From positions 1-64,000 of the IMG/VR virus record IMGVR_UViG_3300036879_000022: DNA of 64,000 nucleotides. One strand, 5' to 3'. The notes below the pieces were generated by a model. That model was not told where the DNA came from, made no database searches, and worked only from the letters and a program-made list of their open reading frames with translations. Made by a program: the position numbers and the translations under genes. Below are positions 1 to 4,846 of this stretch, piece after piece. The stretch is from a virus. Every line of letters begins with the position of its first letter. Positions within the stretch are counted from its first letter, which is position 1.

Positions 1-394
1 CTGTCACCTTGTATTTGTTACAAAGTATCGTCGAAAACTTCTCGACGATCCGGCAATCGATTGGCTTAAGGACCACTTCGGCAAGGTCTGCACTGCAATG
101 GATTGTGTGCTTATTGCCTGTGACGGTGAGAAGGATCACGTCCATTTGCTTATTGAGTACCCACCGAAGCACTCTGTTTCCGGCTTGGTTAACGCCCTCA
201 AGGGAACGTCCTCTCGACTGCTTAGACTTGAGCGTCGCGACATTGCAGCCCGATACTGGAAGGGCGTTCTTTGGTCGCCATCCTATTTTGCTGCCAGCGC
301 TGGCGGCGCTCCGCTTGAGAGGGTCAAGCGATACGTGGAAGCTCAACGGGTTTCCTCCCCGCCGTGAACGGCGGGGTTTCCACCCGAGGTCACG
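1..394. mobile_element. IS200/IS605-family element, partial (tnpA plus one end)
   Basis: tnpA ends inside the subterminal hairpin CCCCGCCGTGAACGGCGGGG (357-376). The boundary probably lies at ATGA 395-398 (TCAT on the minus strand). The rest of the element is left of the window. Confidence 0.85.
2..367 (+). CDS. tnpA: IS200/IS605 Y1 (HUH) transposase, 5'-truncated by window edge
   Basis: Frame open from base 2: HLVFVTKYRR...DHVHLL (HUH)...LKGTSSR...LWSPSYF...YVEAQ. Confidence 0.95.
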   Translation, partial: CHLVFVTKYRRKLLDDPAIDWLKDHFGKVCTAMDCVLIACDGEKDHVHLLIEYPPKHSVSGLVNALKGTSSRLLRLERRDIAARYWKGVLWSPSYFAASAGGAPLERVKRYVEAQRVSSPP

Positions 395-571
395 ATGATC
401 GCCCCGAACGCCAAACCGGAAACCGTGTTCTGGACCGTCACGACGATCGGCACCGTCGCGTTGCTCGCCGTATTCGTGCTCGCGCAGACTGCGCACCGCG
501 CTTTGAAACCGCTCCCGACGATCTCTCAGGGATTGTCGGGAGACATCCTGAAAGTGAAGCCGTCCCTATGA
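395..571 (+). CDS. small membrane protein (58 aa, not in ORF track)
   Basis: MIAPNAKPETVFWTVTTIGTVALLAVFVLAQ... has one hydrophobic segment. Its TGA overlaps the pilin ATG (ATGA). Confidence 0.55.
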   Translation: MIAPNAKPETVFWTVTTIGTVALLAVFVLAQTAHRALKPLPTISQGLSGDILKVKPSL

Positions 572-732
572 TCAAAGCCCTCCGCGCATTTCTCGCCGAC
601 AAGACCGCAGCCGCGGCCATCGAATACAGTCTCTTGGCGGCAGGCATTGGCCTTGTGATCTTGCCCATCATCAACACGCTGGGCGTGACGCTCGCGGGCG
701 TCTTCACGACACTCCAGACAGCCTTGCAATAG
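568..732 (+). CDS. flp: Flp/Fap type IVb pilin
   Basis: MIKALRAFLADKTAAAAIEYSLLAAGIGLVIL...LGVTLAGVF: short leader, xxAIEY Flp motif, hydrophobic helix, 54 aa. Confidence 0.9.
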   Translation: MIKALRAFLADKTAAAAIEYSLLAAGIGLVILPIINTLGVTLAGVFTTLQTALQ

Positions 733-815
733 GCCATGCCAGAGAGAATTCGAGGCCCACCACGTCCTGACCGTTTCTCAGGCGGTCCCCATCAACCCCA
801 ACCTAGTGAGCACAC

Positions 816-1073
816 ATGCAACAGAATAGATCAGAATTGATCGCCCGCGCTATCCTCGACAACGCCGTCTTGAAGGCCGCAGAGTTCGCGGGCGTCCGTC
901 ATCCGACCACTGCCCTCATCCGGGCTCAGCGACTACTGGCGACGCTCCGAATGGCACCGCATCTCATTGAGTGGCGTCTTAATCTCAGTGCGTCGGCGCC
1001 TTCCTACCCGAGCATGGTCCCGACCTACAACGGCGTAGAGCTGGAGATCGCAGAAAAGGTCTACGGCTCATGA
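816..1073 (+). CDS. hypothetical protein
   Basis: ORF coupled to the next gene by ATGA overlap. Confidence 0.6.
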   Translation: MQQNRSELIARAILDNAVLKAAEFAGVRHPTTALIRAQRLLATLRMAPHLIEWRLNLSASAPSYPSMVPTYNGVELEIAEKVYGS

Positions 1074-1279
1074 CCGGCGCATCTGCTAGCCATACTCCCG
1101 CTCGCGATCGGATCATATTCGACGTGGCCCTCACGGCACTTCATTTGAGCCGTGACATGCGCAACGGCGCCATGGTCCTGATTGCGAAAACCGTACTGGC
1201 CACGATACGCCGTGGCCATACTCCGCTGGAAAGCCACGTCCGCAGTCTGCACCGCTATACCCGGGAGAATTTTCGTTAA
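1070..1279 (+). CDS. hypothetical protein
   Basis: ATGA-coupled ORF; its stop coincides with the omegaRNA-like end. Confidence 0.55.
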   Translation: MTGASASHTPARDRIIFDVALTALHLSRDMRNGAMVLIAKTVLATIRRGHTPLESHVRSLHRYTRENFR

Positions 1280-1348
1280 CGTCTTCCCCGCCCTAAAGGG
1301 CGAGGATTTCCTCTGAAGGTGGACAACGTTCTGTCCCGAAAAGCAACT
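1256..1348 (-). ncRNA. orphan IS605 right-end / TnpB omegaRNA-like scaffold plus putative guide
   Basis: Minus strand: GGACAGAACGTTGTCC hairpin, then GAGGAAATCCTCGCCCTTTAGGGCGGGGAAGACGTTAA, typical of tnpB 3'/right-end sequence. No tnpB is adjacent. Confidence 0.65.
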
Positions 1349-1374
1349 GCTCTTCTTATACACTTCGGCCGACT

Positions 1375-1713
1375 TTACTCTAGGCCGAAGCGGAAACCTG
1401 ATAGCGACTTCTCGCCAAAGTGGCCTACTGGCCGGTGCAGCTTTGGCGCATTCTCAATAGCCGTATCGCACTGCGGCGTCAACAGTAAAGGTGGGGCATT
1501 CCTCCCCGACCTGAAGGTCAGGGTTTCCAGCCCCAAAATACCGATGACTGCCTCGCACTCTTCCTGATCAATCCTAAAGAGCGTCAGTTCGGCATCGGGC
1601 TGACGCCTGACATAGGTGGGGCGTCCGTCGATCCCGCGCATGGGCTCCATAAGGTCGTTGATCTCTATCCGCCACTGGATAAGATCGTCGGCGCCGCCGT
1701 TGAAGACGCTCAT
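1375..1713 (-). CDS. hypothetical protein
   Basis: Last gene of an overlapping minus-strand run. Confidence 0.6.
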   Translation of the reverse strand: MSVFNGGADDLIQWRIEINDLMEPMRGIDGRPTYVRRQPDAELTLFRIDQEECEAVIGILGLETLTFRSGRNAPPLLLTPQCDTAIENAPKLHRPVGHFGEKSLSGFRFGLE

Positions 1714-1910
1714 GGCCTGAGCTTCACCATGTTGAGGGCTGGACGCGGGCCGCGCTCGGCACCGCAGATGTGGAAGCCCGCCGGGACATATGGCTTCATC
1801 TGGGCCTCCATCTCACGCCACGCCACACCGCGCGGAAAATCGATCGGAACGTTGATCCATTCACCCTCGGCGTTCATGTCGTTGTCGGGGACAATCTTGA
1901 TCCGTGCCAT
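1710..1910 (-). CDS. hypothetical protein
   Basis: GGAG RBS; overlaps the next gene. Confidence 0.65.
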   Translation of the reverse strand: MARIKIVPDNDMNAEGEWINVPIDFPRGVAWREMEAQMKPYVPAGFHICGAERGPRPALNMVKLRP

Positions 1911-1913
1911 CTG

Positions 1914-2363
1914 CTACTCCATGTCCGCGTGTTTGAGAACCTTGATCATCTCGATCCAATCGTTGCCGTAGTGGGCGCCCGCGACGAAACCGAACCGGCT
2001 GAAGTAGTTCGGCTTCTGCGTTACGAGAGTGACAACGGAGCCGCCGAGCTTTGTGATCTCCGCGATGCGGTGCTCGGTCAGCTTCTCGCCGACGCCGGAG
2101 CCCTGACAGGGCTTGTCCACGGCCAGCCAGATCAGATCAAAGGCCCCGTTCATCCGCATGGACCGATGATACGCGGCGAAGCCGGCGACGCCCCGGGCTG
2201 TCTCTGTGATCTTCGCGACAAAGAACTTCGGTGCGTACTTTCCGCCCTTGAAGTATTCGTACATCTGCTCTAGCGCGCGATCGGCAGCGATCTCTCCCCA
2301 GTTGTCCCGTACAATCCAGAGACACGCGCTAACGTCGGGGCCTTCAAGACGACGGACGATCAT
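1914..2363 (-). CDS. GNAT family N-acetyltransferase
   Basis: LAVDKPCQGSGVG acetyl-CoA motif; YFSRFGF. Confidence 0.9.
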   Translation of the reverse strand: MIVRRLEGPDVSACLWIVRDNWGEIAADRALEQMYEYFKGGKYAPKFFVAKITETARGVAGFAAYHRSMRMNGAFDLIWLAVDKPCQGSGVGEKLTEHRIAEITKLGGSVVTLVTQKPNYFSRFGFVAGAHYGNDWIEMIKVLKHADME

Positions 2364-2369
2364 GGTGCC

Positions 2370-2834
2370 TCACTTATCGATGTGACGATACGGCTTGACC
2401 TCGGAGCGGGGCAGGGGGACCGGCAGCTCGCGTAACGCCCGATCGATGCGATCGGCCAGCTCCAGCACGCCAACCTTCGGAGCATAGATCACGTGATCCG
2501 CACTCTCGGTCATCATGAGGTTGACCTTGTCGGCGCCCTCGAACATTCGCATGTCTGTCCGGTAGACCACGATGAGCTTGTTCTTGAAGCCATAGCCCAG
2601 CTCCCAGCACGTGCCGCTGTCCGGGTCTGACCCATCGAGATTGGCAAGGACGCAATCCGCCCAGTCGATCCCAGCGACATCACTCTCGAAGATCAGATCA
2701 GGCCGGTCGGACCGCTGCTCATGTTCTTGTGGCAGGAAGATTTCGTGGCCACGCAAGCGGAGCTGCTCAGCGAGGTCCGTATTGAAGCTGCACTCCGCCG
2801 TCGAAAAGAGTGCACCGGCCATATAAATTTTCAA
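2370..2834 (-). CDS. nucleoside 2-deoxyribosyltransferase / nucleotide N-glycosidase family
   Basis: KIYMAGALFS...DVAGIDWAD...LDGSDPDSGTCWELGY. Confidence 0.9.
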   Translation of the reverse strand: MKIYMAGALFSTAECSFNTDLAEQLRLRGHEIFLPQEHEQRSDRPDLIFESDVAGIDWADCVLANLDGSDPDSGTCWELGYGFKNKLIVVYRTDMRMFEGADKVNLMMTESADHVIYAPKVGVLELADRIDRALRELPVPLPRSEVKPYRHIDK

Positions 2835-3718
2835 GATACAGTCCTCTGGTTGATAACGCGCTCAATCAGCGCAACAAGTAGCGGCTGGGTTGCCGTGATC
2901 GACGCCGATCCGTCCACATCTTCCTTTACGGTATACCCCAACTCATAAGCAAGCTCGATTAGGAGTGCGCCCTCCGCGTCATCGTCTGTCCGGAGGACCG
3001 TGAACACAAGCCTGTCGTCCCCTATCATCTGGGCTCTCCGAATGGGTGGCGCCGCACGATCTCCTTGACGCCGTCCGCGAATGTGTCGGCGGCTGTCTTC
3101 TGGAATGATGGCTTGAGCTTCTTGCGGATGATGCGGGCGAGCCGCTGAGCATCCGGGCTGAGCCCCATCGCGTCGAGATCGAGCCCGAGCACGGTCTCAA
3201 TGAGGACGGCCTCTTTGTCAGTCAGTTCGACGTTCATGCTCGCTCTTTCGGTATGCCCGCCCCCGCCGGCCAAGGTGCACTGTCGGCGGGGGCGTTGGGG
3301 TTCTATGACTTGGGAGCTACCTTCGCCCTCACCCCAGCATTCTTGAAATGGTTGACGTAGTAGAGAGCCCGGCTTCTACTACGCCCGATGTTCTGCGGCG
3401 TCCGGGAGGTCAGGGATGCGATGAGCCTTCGCCGAGAACTCCCGGCAGCATATCCGGCAGAACCATTCCGGGGCTTGTCGGCATTGGGCCTCCAGCGGGG
3501 ATGGCCAGCACGAGATGACCCATGATTTCATTCTCGCCTTCAGGGGCAGAGCGCCACGTCCACCCCGGCGTCCCGCCGAAGTGCGTTGCCTGCCAAAGCT
3601 TGCCATCGCTTGTCCGGGCCAAGATCAAAACTGCATCCATCGCTTTTCTCCGTGTGATAGAAGTTCGGGCCAGAGCTTTATTGCTCCGGCCCGTCTTCCT
3701 GTCAAGGTGTTTTTCGGT

Positions 3719-4846
3719 TCAAGCGACTTTCGGGGCCTTCGTTTCCCACGAGGCCCACGCCTGCGACCCCGGCTTGCGCCGCTCCGCGCCGTCGAGATAG
3801 ATCGGCCACTGAGCCGTGATCCCGTACTTCGGATGGATGAACGCGAGCGCCTGAGTGGGCCGCGTTGGGCCGGCGCGCAGCAACAGCCGCGCGTATTCGT
3901 TGTATCCGATCAGCGAACCATTGGCGAGCACGGGCACCGCATCTCCGCGAGGGATGTACGTGTGATAGTGGCCGATGATCAGCGTGTCGAAGTCGCGCCC
4001 GCACTGAGCTTCCGAGCGGCCGACCTTGATCGCACCACGCGCGATCGGACCGAGGGCACCGATGATGCCGTCGCCGCCCTTGACGCCGAGCGTATCACCG
4101 TGAGTGAGCATGAAGCGGTGACCGTAGACCGCGAAATGTGCATCGACTTCGTTCGGCACGTGGATGGTCACCCTCGGGTCCTTCGCGAACCACTGTTCAA
4201 GGTGCTGATAGATCACCCATTCCCAACTGTCGAACACGCGGTTCTTCGCGCGCGGCTTCAGCGTGGTGCGGCCGTGATTGCCCGGCACGCACGGAACGAA
4301 GACCTTGCCGAACTTGTCGGCGAGCATCGTGATAAAGCCGATGAGCATCTCTTCGACTTCGACCACGGCCAGCGTCACCGGGCCGTCATTGGTCTCGCGG
4401 AGGTCCTCGTGGATGCCGCCAGTGATCATGTCACCGCCGACACAGAAGACGACGCCCGGATAGCTCGGGTTCGTCATATGGTTGAAGCACAGATCGAGCA
4501 CCTTCGTTCCGAAAATCTTGACGCGCTCCTTGGAGATGCGTCGGTTGAAGGCGTTCATGCCGCCGACCTGATCCGGGTCAACCATCTCCCCGTGATGCCA
4601 GTCCGAGGCGACGATCAGCGGGACGCCGGTCGTCGAGTGCTTGACTTTGGTATCGACGAGCCACTTCGGCGGCTCGCGCGTGTAGGCTTCAAGGCCGAAG
4701 ATTTCTTGGCGGAGGCTTTCAGCCGTGTCGTTGCTCTGGGAACGACTGCGCAGCTCCTTGTTGAGGGCTTTGATCGTGGTCTCTTTGCCCCGGATGATGT
4801 CGTTGGCGTCGGCGAGACGCTCGGCGTCTGTTTTCTTTTCTGACAT
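3719..4846 (-). CDS. calcineurin-like metallophosphoesterase
   Basis: SDWH, GGDM, GNHG, THGD and GHYH motifs. Confidence 0.9.
   Translation of the reverse strand: MSEKKTDAERLADANDIIRGKETTIKALNKELRSRSQSNDTAESLRQEIFGLEAYTREPPKWLVDTKVKHSTTGVPLIVASDWHHGEMVDPDQVGGMNAFNRRISKERVKIFGTKVLDLCFNHMTNPSYPGVVFCVGGDMITGGIHEDLRETNDGPVTLAVVEVEEMLIGFITMLADKFGKVFVPCVPGNHGRTTLKPRAKNRVFDSWEWVIYQHLEQWFAKDPRVTIHVPNEVDAHFAVYGHRFMLTHGDTLGVKGGDGIIGALGPIARGAIKVGRSEAQCGRDFDTLIIGHYHTYIPRGDAVPVLANGSLIGYNEYARLLLRAGPTRPTQALAFIHPKYGITAQWPIYLDGAERRKPGSQAWASWETKAPKVA

Follow-up and report, generated by a model that had tools for sequence, protein, structure and literature searches.

The stretch of DNA analysed here (the window) is the first 64 kb of an 84,382-bp linear virus contig, IMG/VR record IMGVR_UViG_3300036879_000022, and window base 1 is the start of the whole record. 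At 1276-1543, on the minus strand, it carries a 268-bp sequence without protein genes that is very probably a non-autonomous derivative of an insertion sequence (IS) of the IS605 type, resembling the miniature inverted-repeat transposable elements (MITEs) and the palindrome-associated transposable elements (PATEs), a name that originates in haloarchaea. Because its ends are intact, it is found in several copies and it is polymorphic for presence and absence, this mini-element appears to be mobile.

Structure of the mini-element

The first-pass annotation of this DNA, made from the sequence alone, had recognised a minus-strand IS605-type right end (RE) that terminates in ...GACGTTAA at 1276, and this is correct to the base. 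The stretch 1276-1339 is 86-89% identical to the RE of an IS found in L082-L087 and in L093; over 64-71 nt (1276-1346, minus strand) the identity with the RE of the complete 1,577-bp element, which contains tnpA and tnpB, is 83-89%, and the flanks of five distinct RE copies diverge exactly at 1275/1276. The same annotation had reported that no left end (LE) lies nearby. In fact, an LE copy is present at 1494-1543 on the same strand as the RE, with a hairpin at 1504-1523 and a similarity of about 85% to the LE of the full IS, and it adjoins the tetranucleotide TCAT (1544-1547, minus strand), the target-adjacent motif (TAM), which stands 5' of it. When 1276-1547 is aligned to the full IS, the termini alone match and they are colinear with it: 1276-1339 corresponds to IS nt 1-64 (against L082 the match extends to 1346, that is IS nt 1-71) and 1494-1547 to IS nt 1527-1577. 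RE and LE are 150 nt apart, with the LE upstream on the minus strand, and since they stand in LE-to-RE order they together bound a gene-less minus-strand element of 268 bp with an interior of about 147 nt. The LE and RE of the parent are thus in the correct order and strand, and the mini-element lies 3' of TCAT without target duplication.

The whole record contains three copies of the hairpin motif, all within the first 1.6 kb and all read best on the minus strand: copy A (about 352-394), copy B (the RE at 1276-1346) and copy C (the LE at 1494-1543). Copy A is the LE of a full-length sister IS (352-394, minus strand, 394 being the last IS base) with its TCAT target at 395-398, and the IS copies diverge after ATGA. 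C and A are about 85% alike and have the same ...CGATGA ending; two stem pairs are altered on both sides, and one more pair in C is a G-T wobble on the minus strand only. The compensatory substitutions in the LE stem, together with those in hairpin H3 of the RE, indicate that the parent of the mini-element was a sister lineage and not the IS copy at the contig start.

A covariance model built on 41 of the 42 distinct REs from distant bacterial relatives gives a full-model match on B (1276-1398, minus strand; 22.3 bits, E=0.0015) with the final model position at 1276, the upstream part of this alignment having low posterior probability; the model matches A and C over the hairpin only, the C hairpin (1503-1528) with 16.3 bits. 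Two Rfam families resemble the hairpin copies through weak minus-strand matches, over the full length or the 3' end, and differ in that all the matches are far under the gathering scores: HgcC (RF00062, gathering score 50) gives 26.7, 23.5 and 18.1 bits at A, B and C, and sot0042 (RF02656, gathering score 88) gives 19.5 bits at B for its 3' end only. The sot RNAs overlap the 3' ends of IS1341-type tnpB genes.

The mini-element has neither a transposase nor any other gene. A search with PF07282 had zero matches in the whole 84,382-bp record, in agreement with the annotation's statement that no tnpB is adjacent, and the interior frame is unlike TnpA or any fetched locus. Neither the IS, nor the 125 fetched loci, nor the remainder of the record contains anything that matches the interior sequence (E<=1). 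Its frame ends in ...GFRFGLE, which resembles the ...RFAGLEFE found in homologues of the phage gene that the element interrupts. Two candidate origins were rejected: as to a decayed 3' end of tnpA at 1347-1493, BLASTP of the 82-aa frame against TnpA gave no alignment at E<=100; as to a degenerate tail of the native phage gene forming the stretch between LE and RE, the 126-nt tail preserved in the metagenome contig L121 is missing from the whole 84-kb record and aligns locally with 1200-1543 at a score of 28, against 25.6 +/- 4.2 for shuffles.

The parent IS family

Relatives of the window TnpA in bacterial genomes number 248 and are distant (best identity 67%); 80 of these loci were kept for the bacterial comparison. 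The bacterial relatives examined carry an IS605-type unit, with a tnpB of 399-414 aa on the opposite strand upstream of tnpA in all nine loci extracted; the LE adjoins the 3' end of tnpA, and the RE consists of a conserved hairpin followed by ...GATGTCAA, beyond which the copies diverge. IS605 of Helicobacter pylori has divergent tnpA and tnpB genes.

Close relatives come from IMG/VR, where six of 38 loci have a TnpA 95-97% identical to that of the window. These six related viral contigs (L082-L087) hold the complete 1,577-bp IS, composed of RE, tnpB, a divergent tnpA and LE. Its RE starts with TTAACGTC on the plus strand and its LE ends in ...CACGATGA; the tnpB encodes 358 aa (PF07282, 1.1e-23; PF01385, 1.7e-15) and stops 17 nt from the RE terminus, and the tnpA encodes 138 aa, with tnpB beginning 36 nt upstream of it on the other strand in L082. 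The mini-element shares with this parent the RE (83-89% over 64-71 nt), the LE (about 75-85% over the last 50 nt or so), the TCAT target and the TTAA RE terminus 10 nt past the hairpin; unlike the parent, it has no tnpA and no tnpB, and the spacer of its LE is 2 nt longer. Four further IMG/VR contigs with full IS copies (L110-L113) also contain truncated ones, which lack a nearby RE and consist of the LE and residues 62-121 of tnpA, its 3' half; in these, the first five flank bases after TCAT equal those of window copy A.

The window itself holds part of such an IS. The Y1 transposase gene tnpA of a full-length sister element lies at 2-367 on the plus strand (PF01797, E=5.8e-37) and is truncated by the contig start; its product shares 95-97% identity with TnpA of L082-L087, and the half of the 1,577-bp IS with tnpA and LE matches window 1-398 at 89-93% identity, with 398/399 as the point where the flanks of all IS copies diverge on the LE side. 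A cognate tnpA 0.9 kb from the RE, as the annotation had stated, is therefore present.

Since tnpB begins 36 nt upstream of tnpA in L082, the cognate tnpB is expected just beyond the contig start. The TnpBs of the close family (350-358 aa; L082:2838-3914 on the minus strand, L083, L085, L089, L091, L092 and L093) all have Gly in place of the canonical RuvC-II Glu (7/7), followed by Asn in six copies and by Asp in one, while they retain the RuvC-I Asp and the RuvC-III HDRD, and a conserved E-x-(D/N)-E motif lies just ahead of the zinc finger. These residues fit a Gly-type clade with a rearranged RuvC-II, which Altae-Tran et al. argue to be probably active on the basis of conservation and AlphaFold models (PMC10691335). 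No sign of a TldR-like dead protein was found in the seven family TnpBs examined, and no TnpB homologue lies beside the guide.

Occupied sites, empty sites and copy number

Contigs of four Logan runs (X1 from permafrost; X2, X3 and X9 from peat) were placed on 1-2400, and every branch point in them coincides with an element border. On the LE side, the metagenome contig L121 follows the window for 3,170 nt (4713 to 1544) at 99.8% identity, and the match ends right after TCAT; past this point L121 continues with the native tail of the gene, which encodes the last 30 residues, a conserved part, of an 87-aa protein. In P0002 and P0003, homologues of 87-88 aa, 25 of these 30 residues are identical. 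The insertion at 1544 swaps the last 30 residues of the phage gene for element sequence, giving a chimeric open reading frame (ORF) of 112 aa (1375-1713, minus strand), and the uninterrupted phage allele before 1544 is found in X2, X3 and X9. On the RE side, the empty allele after 1275, in which the flank is joined directly to ATGAAC, occurs in X1 and X2, and P0005, a frameshifted homologue of ORF 1070-1279, reads ...GEFS|MNRT..., which corresponds to the same joining of 1275 to ATGAAC. For the full-length IS, an allele free of it and joined at 395 is present in X1, X2 and X3.

TCAT is found at all seven distinct LE junctions, whose flanks diverge beyond it, and only once in each of the three empty alleles, so that it is the target motif and is not duplicated, as expected of the fixed targets of the IS200/IS605 family in the description by Meers et al. 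(10.1101/2023.03.14.532601). The suggestion that TCAT is the probable target of this tnpA is thereby borne out.

The element is not confined to one site. P0006 (102 aa, two contigs) runs from the interior through the LE into MNRTLDLLSY..., the gene beyond the empty site at 1275; this junction indicates a simple insertion of the mini-element at the 1275 site and is a second LE junction of the same element. In X1, X2 and X3 the exact unitig 1304-1547 is covered at depths of 142.7, 38.4 and 55.9, compared with 34.7, 12.5 and 19.6 for the phage flank and 38.6, 16.6 and 15.3 for the Flp-side flank (the side of the Flp pilin gene); the unitig is thus at 4.1, 3.1 and 2.9 times the phage flank. Other flanks at 1276 number at least four in X1, at least two in X2 and at least two in X3; after 1547, among the flanks listed, there are two in X1, one in X3 and none in X2.

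These data bear on the possibility that we are looking at inert debris, deletions having left at 1276-1346 a lone RE scar and at 1494-1543 a lone, unrelated LE scar, both devoid of mobility and function. Such a reading could appeal to the limited IS homology (64-71 nt at the RE, some 50 nt at the LE), to an LE that is about 15% diverged with a 2-nt change of spacer, and to the truncated IS copies of L110-L113. It is very unlikely, in that interior and LE form one exact unitig at 3-4 times the flank depth in three runs, P0006 joins the same interior and LE to another flank, the empty alleles fit both borders to the base and compensatory changes preserve the hairpins. The simple IS scar that the annotation kept as a fallback came closer to the facts, yet it fails on the two intact ends, the several copies and the presence/absence polymorphism.

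Three side observations concern the insertion sites. P0001 (73 aa, its first 57 residues 100% identical) leads from the same TCAT 1544-1547 into an LE of the full-length-IS type, which means that this phage site was struck independently by a full IS and by the mini-element. ORF 1070-1279 ends in ...ENFR-stop both with the element (CGT TAA, from the RE terminus) and without it (CGA TGA, from the TCAT target). The ATG of the MNRTLDLL... gene is retained, but the GGGAGA stretch for ribosome binding lies 268 nt further off when the element is present.

Assembly of the contig and points against the mini-element

In the assembly, the LE borders on the phage gene (site 2) and the RE on the Flp-side locus (site 1); each site possesses an empty allele of its own, and the first ~1.5 kb of the contig are linked to the phage body solely via the 268-bp repeat. 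Since the flanks come from two different sites, the contig must be either a mis-join across the repeat or a true recombinant of two copies. X9 contains the phage in its native allele only, and the Flp segment has depth 0 there, a pattern that fits either alternative. The contig may therefore be mis-joined; if it is chimeric, the 1275 flank would go with ...ATGAACCGG, the 1548 flank with the native tail of L121, and the first ~1.5 kb would not be phage DNA. The consensus of the listed loose ends before 1276, compared by eye with the native phage tail, agrees at 14/30 positions in X1, 15/30 in X3 and 6/30 in X2, a weak hint of a junction between the RE and the native tail. A composite transposon, made of the mini-element, the 877-bp Flp segment and the full IS, was rejected as the main form: contigs joined to the IS at 1-424 reach at most about one third of the Flp depth (12.8 vs 44.7, 5.8 vs 17.6 and 2.3-3.4 vs 16.4), and the IS-free allele at 395 is present in three runs.

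Several points weigh against a mobile mini-element and are taken here together. The element in the contig is not one simple insertion, since its two flanks come from different sites. The record contains no tnpB. The spacer between TCAT and the hairpin in the LE at C is 20 nt, against 18 nt in the parent, and this might impair cleavage by TnpA. A search for the mini-element in five related viral records returned only the REs of their full IS copies, and two exact patterns from the interior had 0 matches to a second copy in IMG/VR; as a consequence, the claim of several copies rests on P0006 and on the depths and loose ends of the four runs, one of which (X1) may be the source sample.

As the proposed mechanism of mobility, the mini-element would be excised and inserted as single-stranded DNA by the Y1 transposase TnpA, which full-length sister elements, one of them at the contig start, would supply in trans. 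The tnpA at 2-367 lies on the same contig; if the contig is mis-joined, this reduces to co-occurrence in the same samples. The RE would carry the 3' part of the parent omegaRNA and the 20 nt that follow would act as guide, like any IS605 flank; if the RNA were made and loaded on a sister TnpB, it would direct the cutting of the vacated TCAT and flank, favouring the re-copying of the element (homing).

The retained omegaRNA module

The RE (1276-1346, minus strand) corresponds to the 3' module of the parent omegaRNA and is composed of hairpin H3 (1321-1336), a 3-bp stem (1310-1319), hairpin H4 (1285-1306) and a 10-nt tail ending in TTAA. It corresponds to the final ~16 tnpB codons and a further 17 nt; what survives of the omegaRNA is about 62-71 nt long, the homology with the parent ending 64-71 nt from the terminus, and the scaffold ends at the RE boundary, where the flank follows as guide. 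Across seven sequences (B and six IS copies) 98.7% of 154 cells are paired and 7 of the 22 pairs changed on both sides; none of 500 shuffles was as good, and slid controls pair at 43-51%. The loop of H3 (1327-1330) would form a pseudoknot with the tail (1278-1281, positions -6 to -3), a helix predicted from the alignment that is paired in all seven sequences, with two of its four pairs changed on both sides, both double changes coming from L092 alone. B carries two compensatory pairs in H3, which may date from the autonomous ancestor.

Upstream of H3 the resemblance ceases. The long-range stem predicted in the parent (columns 28-101 of the A4 alignment) is absent, two unrelated hairpins standing in its place, and the complete parent scaffold with its upstream stems is not present in the mini-element. 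The 145-nt RNA of the mini-element has a predicted fold of -54.7 kcal/mol (z=-3.6).

We lean slightly towards the view that in this mini-element the omegaRNA remnant is dead weight, kept as the RE hairpin and tail that TnpA needs in cis and unable to load TnpB without the upstream scaffold. The missing long-range stem and the low posterior probability of the upstream covariance-model alignment speak in its favour, as does ISDra2, whose omegaRNA requires a scaffold of 116 nt with four stems and a pseudoknot according to the account of it in PMC10097598. On the other side, H3, for which TnpA has no known need, has been preserved with two compensatory pairs and can still pair through its loop with the tail, although these changes may predate the mini-element. 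There is an outside chance that the ~62-nt pseudoknotted module and the two hairpins of the mini-element's own make up a working minimal omegaRNA for the 358-aa Gly-type TnpB, so that the copies would be guide-only homing units borrowing a nuclease. As in ISDra2, where, in the same source, the scaffold overlaps the 3' end of tnpB, stops at the RE and forms its pseudoknot with the last bases before the guide (PMC10097598), the module here ends at the RE; the ISDra2 tail pairs with nt -103 to -105, whereas here it would pair with the H3 loop at about -52 to -55, with covariation from one sequence.

A promoter-like site was also described by the first-pass annotation. The hexamers and the 17-nt spacer are as it had them, CTAGAG-N17-TATAAG at 1383 to 1355 on the minus strand (CTAGAG 1383 to 1378, TATAAG 1360 to 1355), in and after the interior hairpin H1 (1363-1390); its likeness to a promoter is weak, the site being uncalled by a sigma-70 scan of 1-4000, CTAGAG agreeing with TTGACA at one of six positions and TATAAG lacking the final T. 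The sole RNA run listed is X20 (marine), with 0.05 of the sampled words.

The flank as guide and the question of domestication

The 20 nt after the RE (1275 to 1256, minus strand) are antisense to the 3' end of ORF 1070-1279, and all RE copies diverge here. The annotation had proposed these bases as a guide; they are present, and they are a guide only in the sense in which any IS605 flank is one. Their sole match is the element's own vacant site, with TCAT abutting (X1, X2 and P0005). A second match is absent from the window with 3 mismatches allowed, from the whole 84-kb record with 5, from 126 fetched loci (843 kb) with 4 and, for an exact 18-mer, from IMG/VR. A TAM-adjacent target therefore exists, namely the vacant site with TCAT and flank, while the search of the record, the 843 kb of loci and IMG/VR for the guide returned no distant promoter target. 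TCAT and flank at a vacant site is the ordinary homing arrangement of TnpB and omegaRNA as outlined in 10.1101/2023.03.14.532601.

The annotation had favoured a domesticated second guide of the TldR kind, that is, an RNA with its own promoter acting in trans against a host or competitor target such as a pilin or flp promoter. Several features might suggest it: the 3' module is retained with its putative pseudoknot intact, a TATAAG hexamer precedes it, there is a Flp pilin gene (PF04964, E=1.5e-10) at a distance of 0.5 kb, and a precedent exists in TldR (10.1101/2023.11.30.569447, PMC13418256). We regard it as scarcely credible, and the claim found no support. The supposed guide flanks a polymorphic insertion and matches the empty site of that insertion only; a mobile element with several copies would carry a different guide in each; the scan did not call the promoter; no fixed nuclease-dead tnpB adjoins; and the cognate TnpB is encoded inside a mobile IS and is of a clade argued to be probably active (PMC10691335). 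The likeness to TldR near prophage fliC consists in a guide RNA of the TnpB type, a phage context and a nearby gene for a surface filament; TldR is reportedly fixed and nuclease-dead, with an adjacent guide to a distant host promoter (10.1101/2023.11.30.569447, PMC13418256), whereas the present element is mobile, lacks an adjacent protein and carries a guide whose sole match is the element's own empty site. As to the closeness to a phage pilin, the gene does lie 0.5 kb off, but it is joined to the phage body only through the repeat, and the Flp pilin may not be phage-encoded.

Other features of the contig

The first ~1.5 kb contain tnpA, an ORF of 58 aa, the Flp pilin gene (568-732, about 0.5 kb from the RE) and ORFs 816-1073 and 1070-1279. 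In X1 (depth 15.6) and X2 (depth 5.4) contigs connect 517 to 760, skipping 242 nt with the entire Flp pilin gene, with or without other bases in between, and at 845 the window has C where the single covering contig of each of X1, X2 and X3 has T. Searches of IMG/VR viral contigs gave one irrelevant locus for the GNAT neighbour and no match for ORF 1070-1276. Outside the window, the end of the record (G000:C1, ~82,000-84,382) consists of collagen-like GGC/GCN triplet repeats in near-identical repeated blocks, probably a tail-fibre gene; these repeats are likely to account for the contig break.

Relation to known mini-elements and significance

The closest counterparts are the PATE-like IS200/IS605 minis of Geobacillus stearothermophilus, which, as Meers et al. 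describe (10.1101/2023.03.14.532601), are gene-less, have LE and RE like those of autonomous relatives, receive TnpA (and TnpB, if used) in trans, and carry omegaRNA sequence in the RE with the flank as guide; PATE-like elements "often encode omegaRNAs" used in trans by TnpB (same source). The mini-element of the window differs in that only the last 62-71 nt of the scaffold are present and the interior is unrelated to the parent, and in its setting, a phage-like metagenomic contig with occupied and empty alleles together in peat and permafrost.

Gene-less IS200/IS605 minis that keep the omegaRNA end are thus an already published class, to which the present element adds another member. The locus also carries a caution, since nothing but the 268-bp repeat may connect the phage with the opening ~1.5 kb of this "viral" contig, in which the Flp pilin gene lies. 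At the same time it offers a natural case with base-exact occupied and empty alleles in several environmental samples, in which excision or homing could be traced in situ, and its very short omegaRNA module could delimit the minimal scaffold of a TnpB with a rearranged RuvC-II. If the module were indeed a working minimal omegaRNA, the polymorphic insertions in peat and permafrost phage would represent an ongoing RNA-guided drive, and the phage TCAT site struck by both the mini-element and the full IS would be among its cases.

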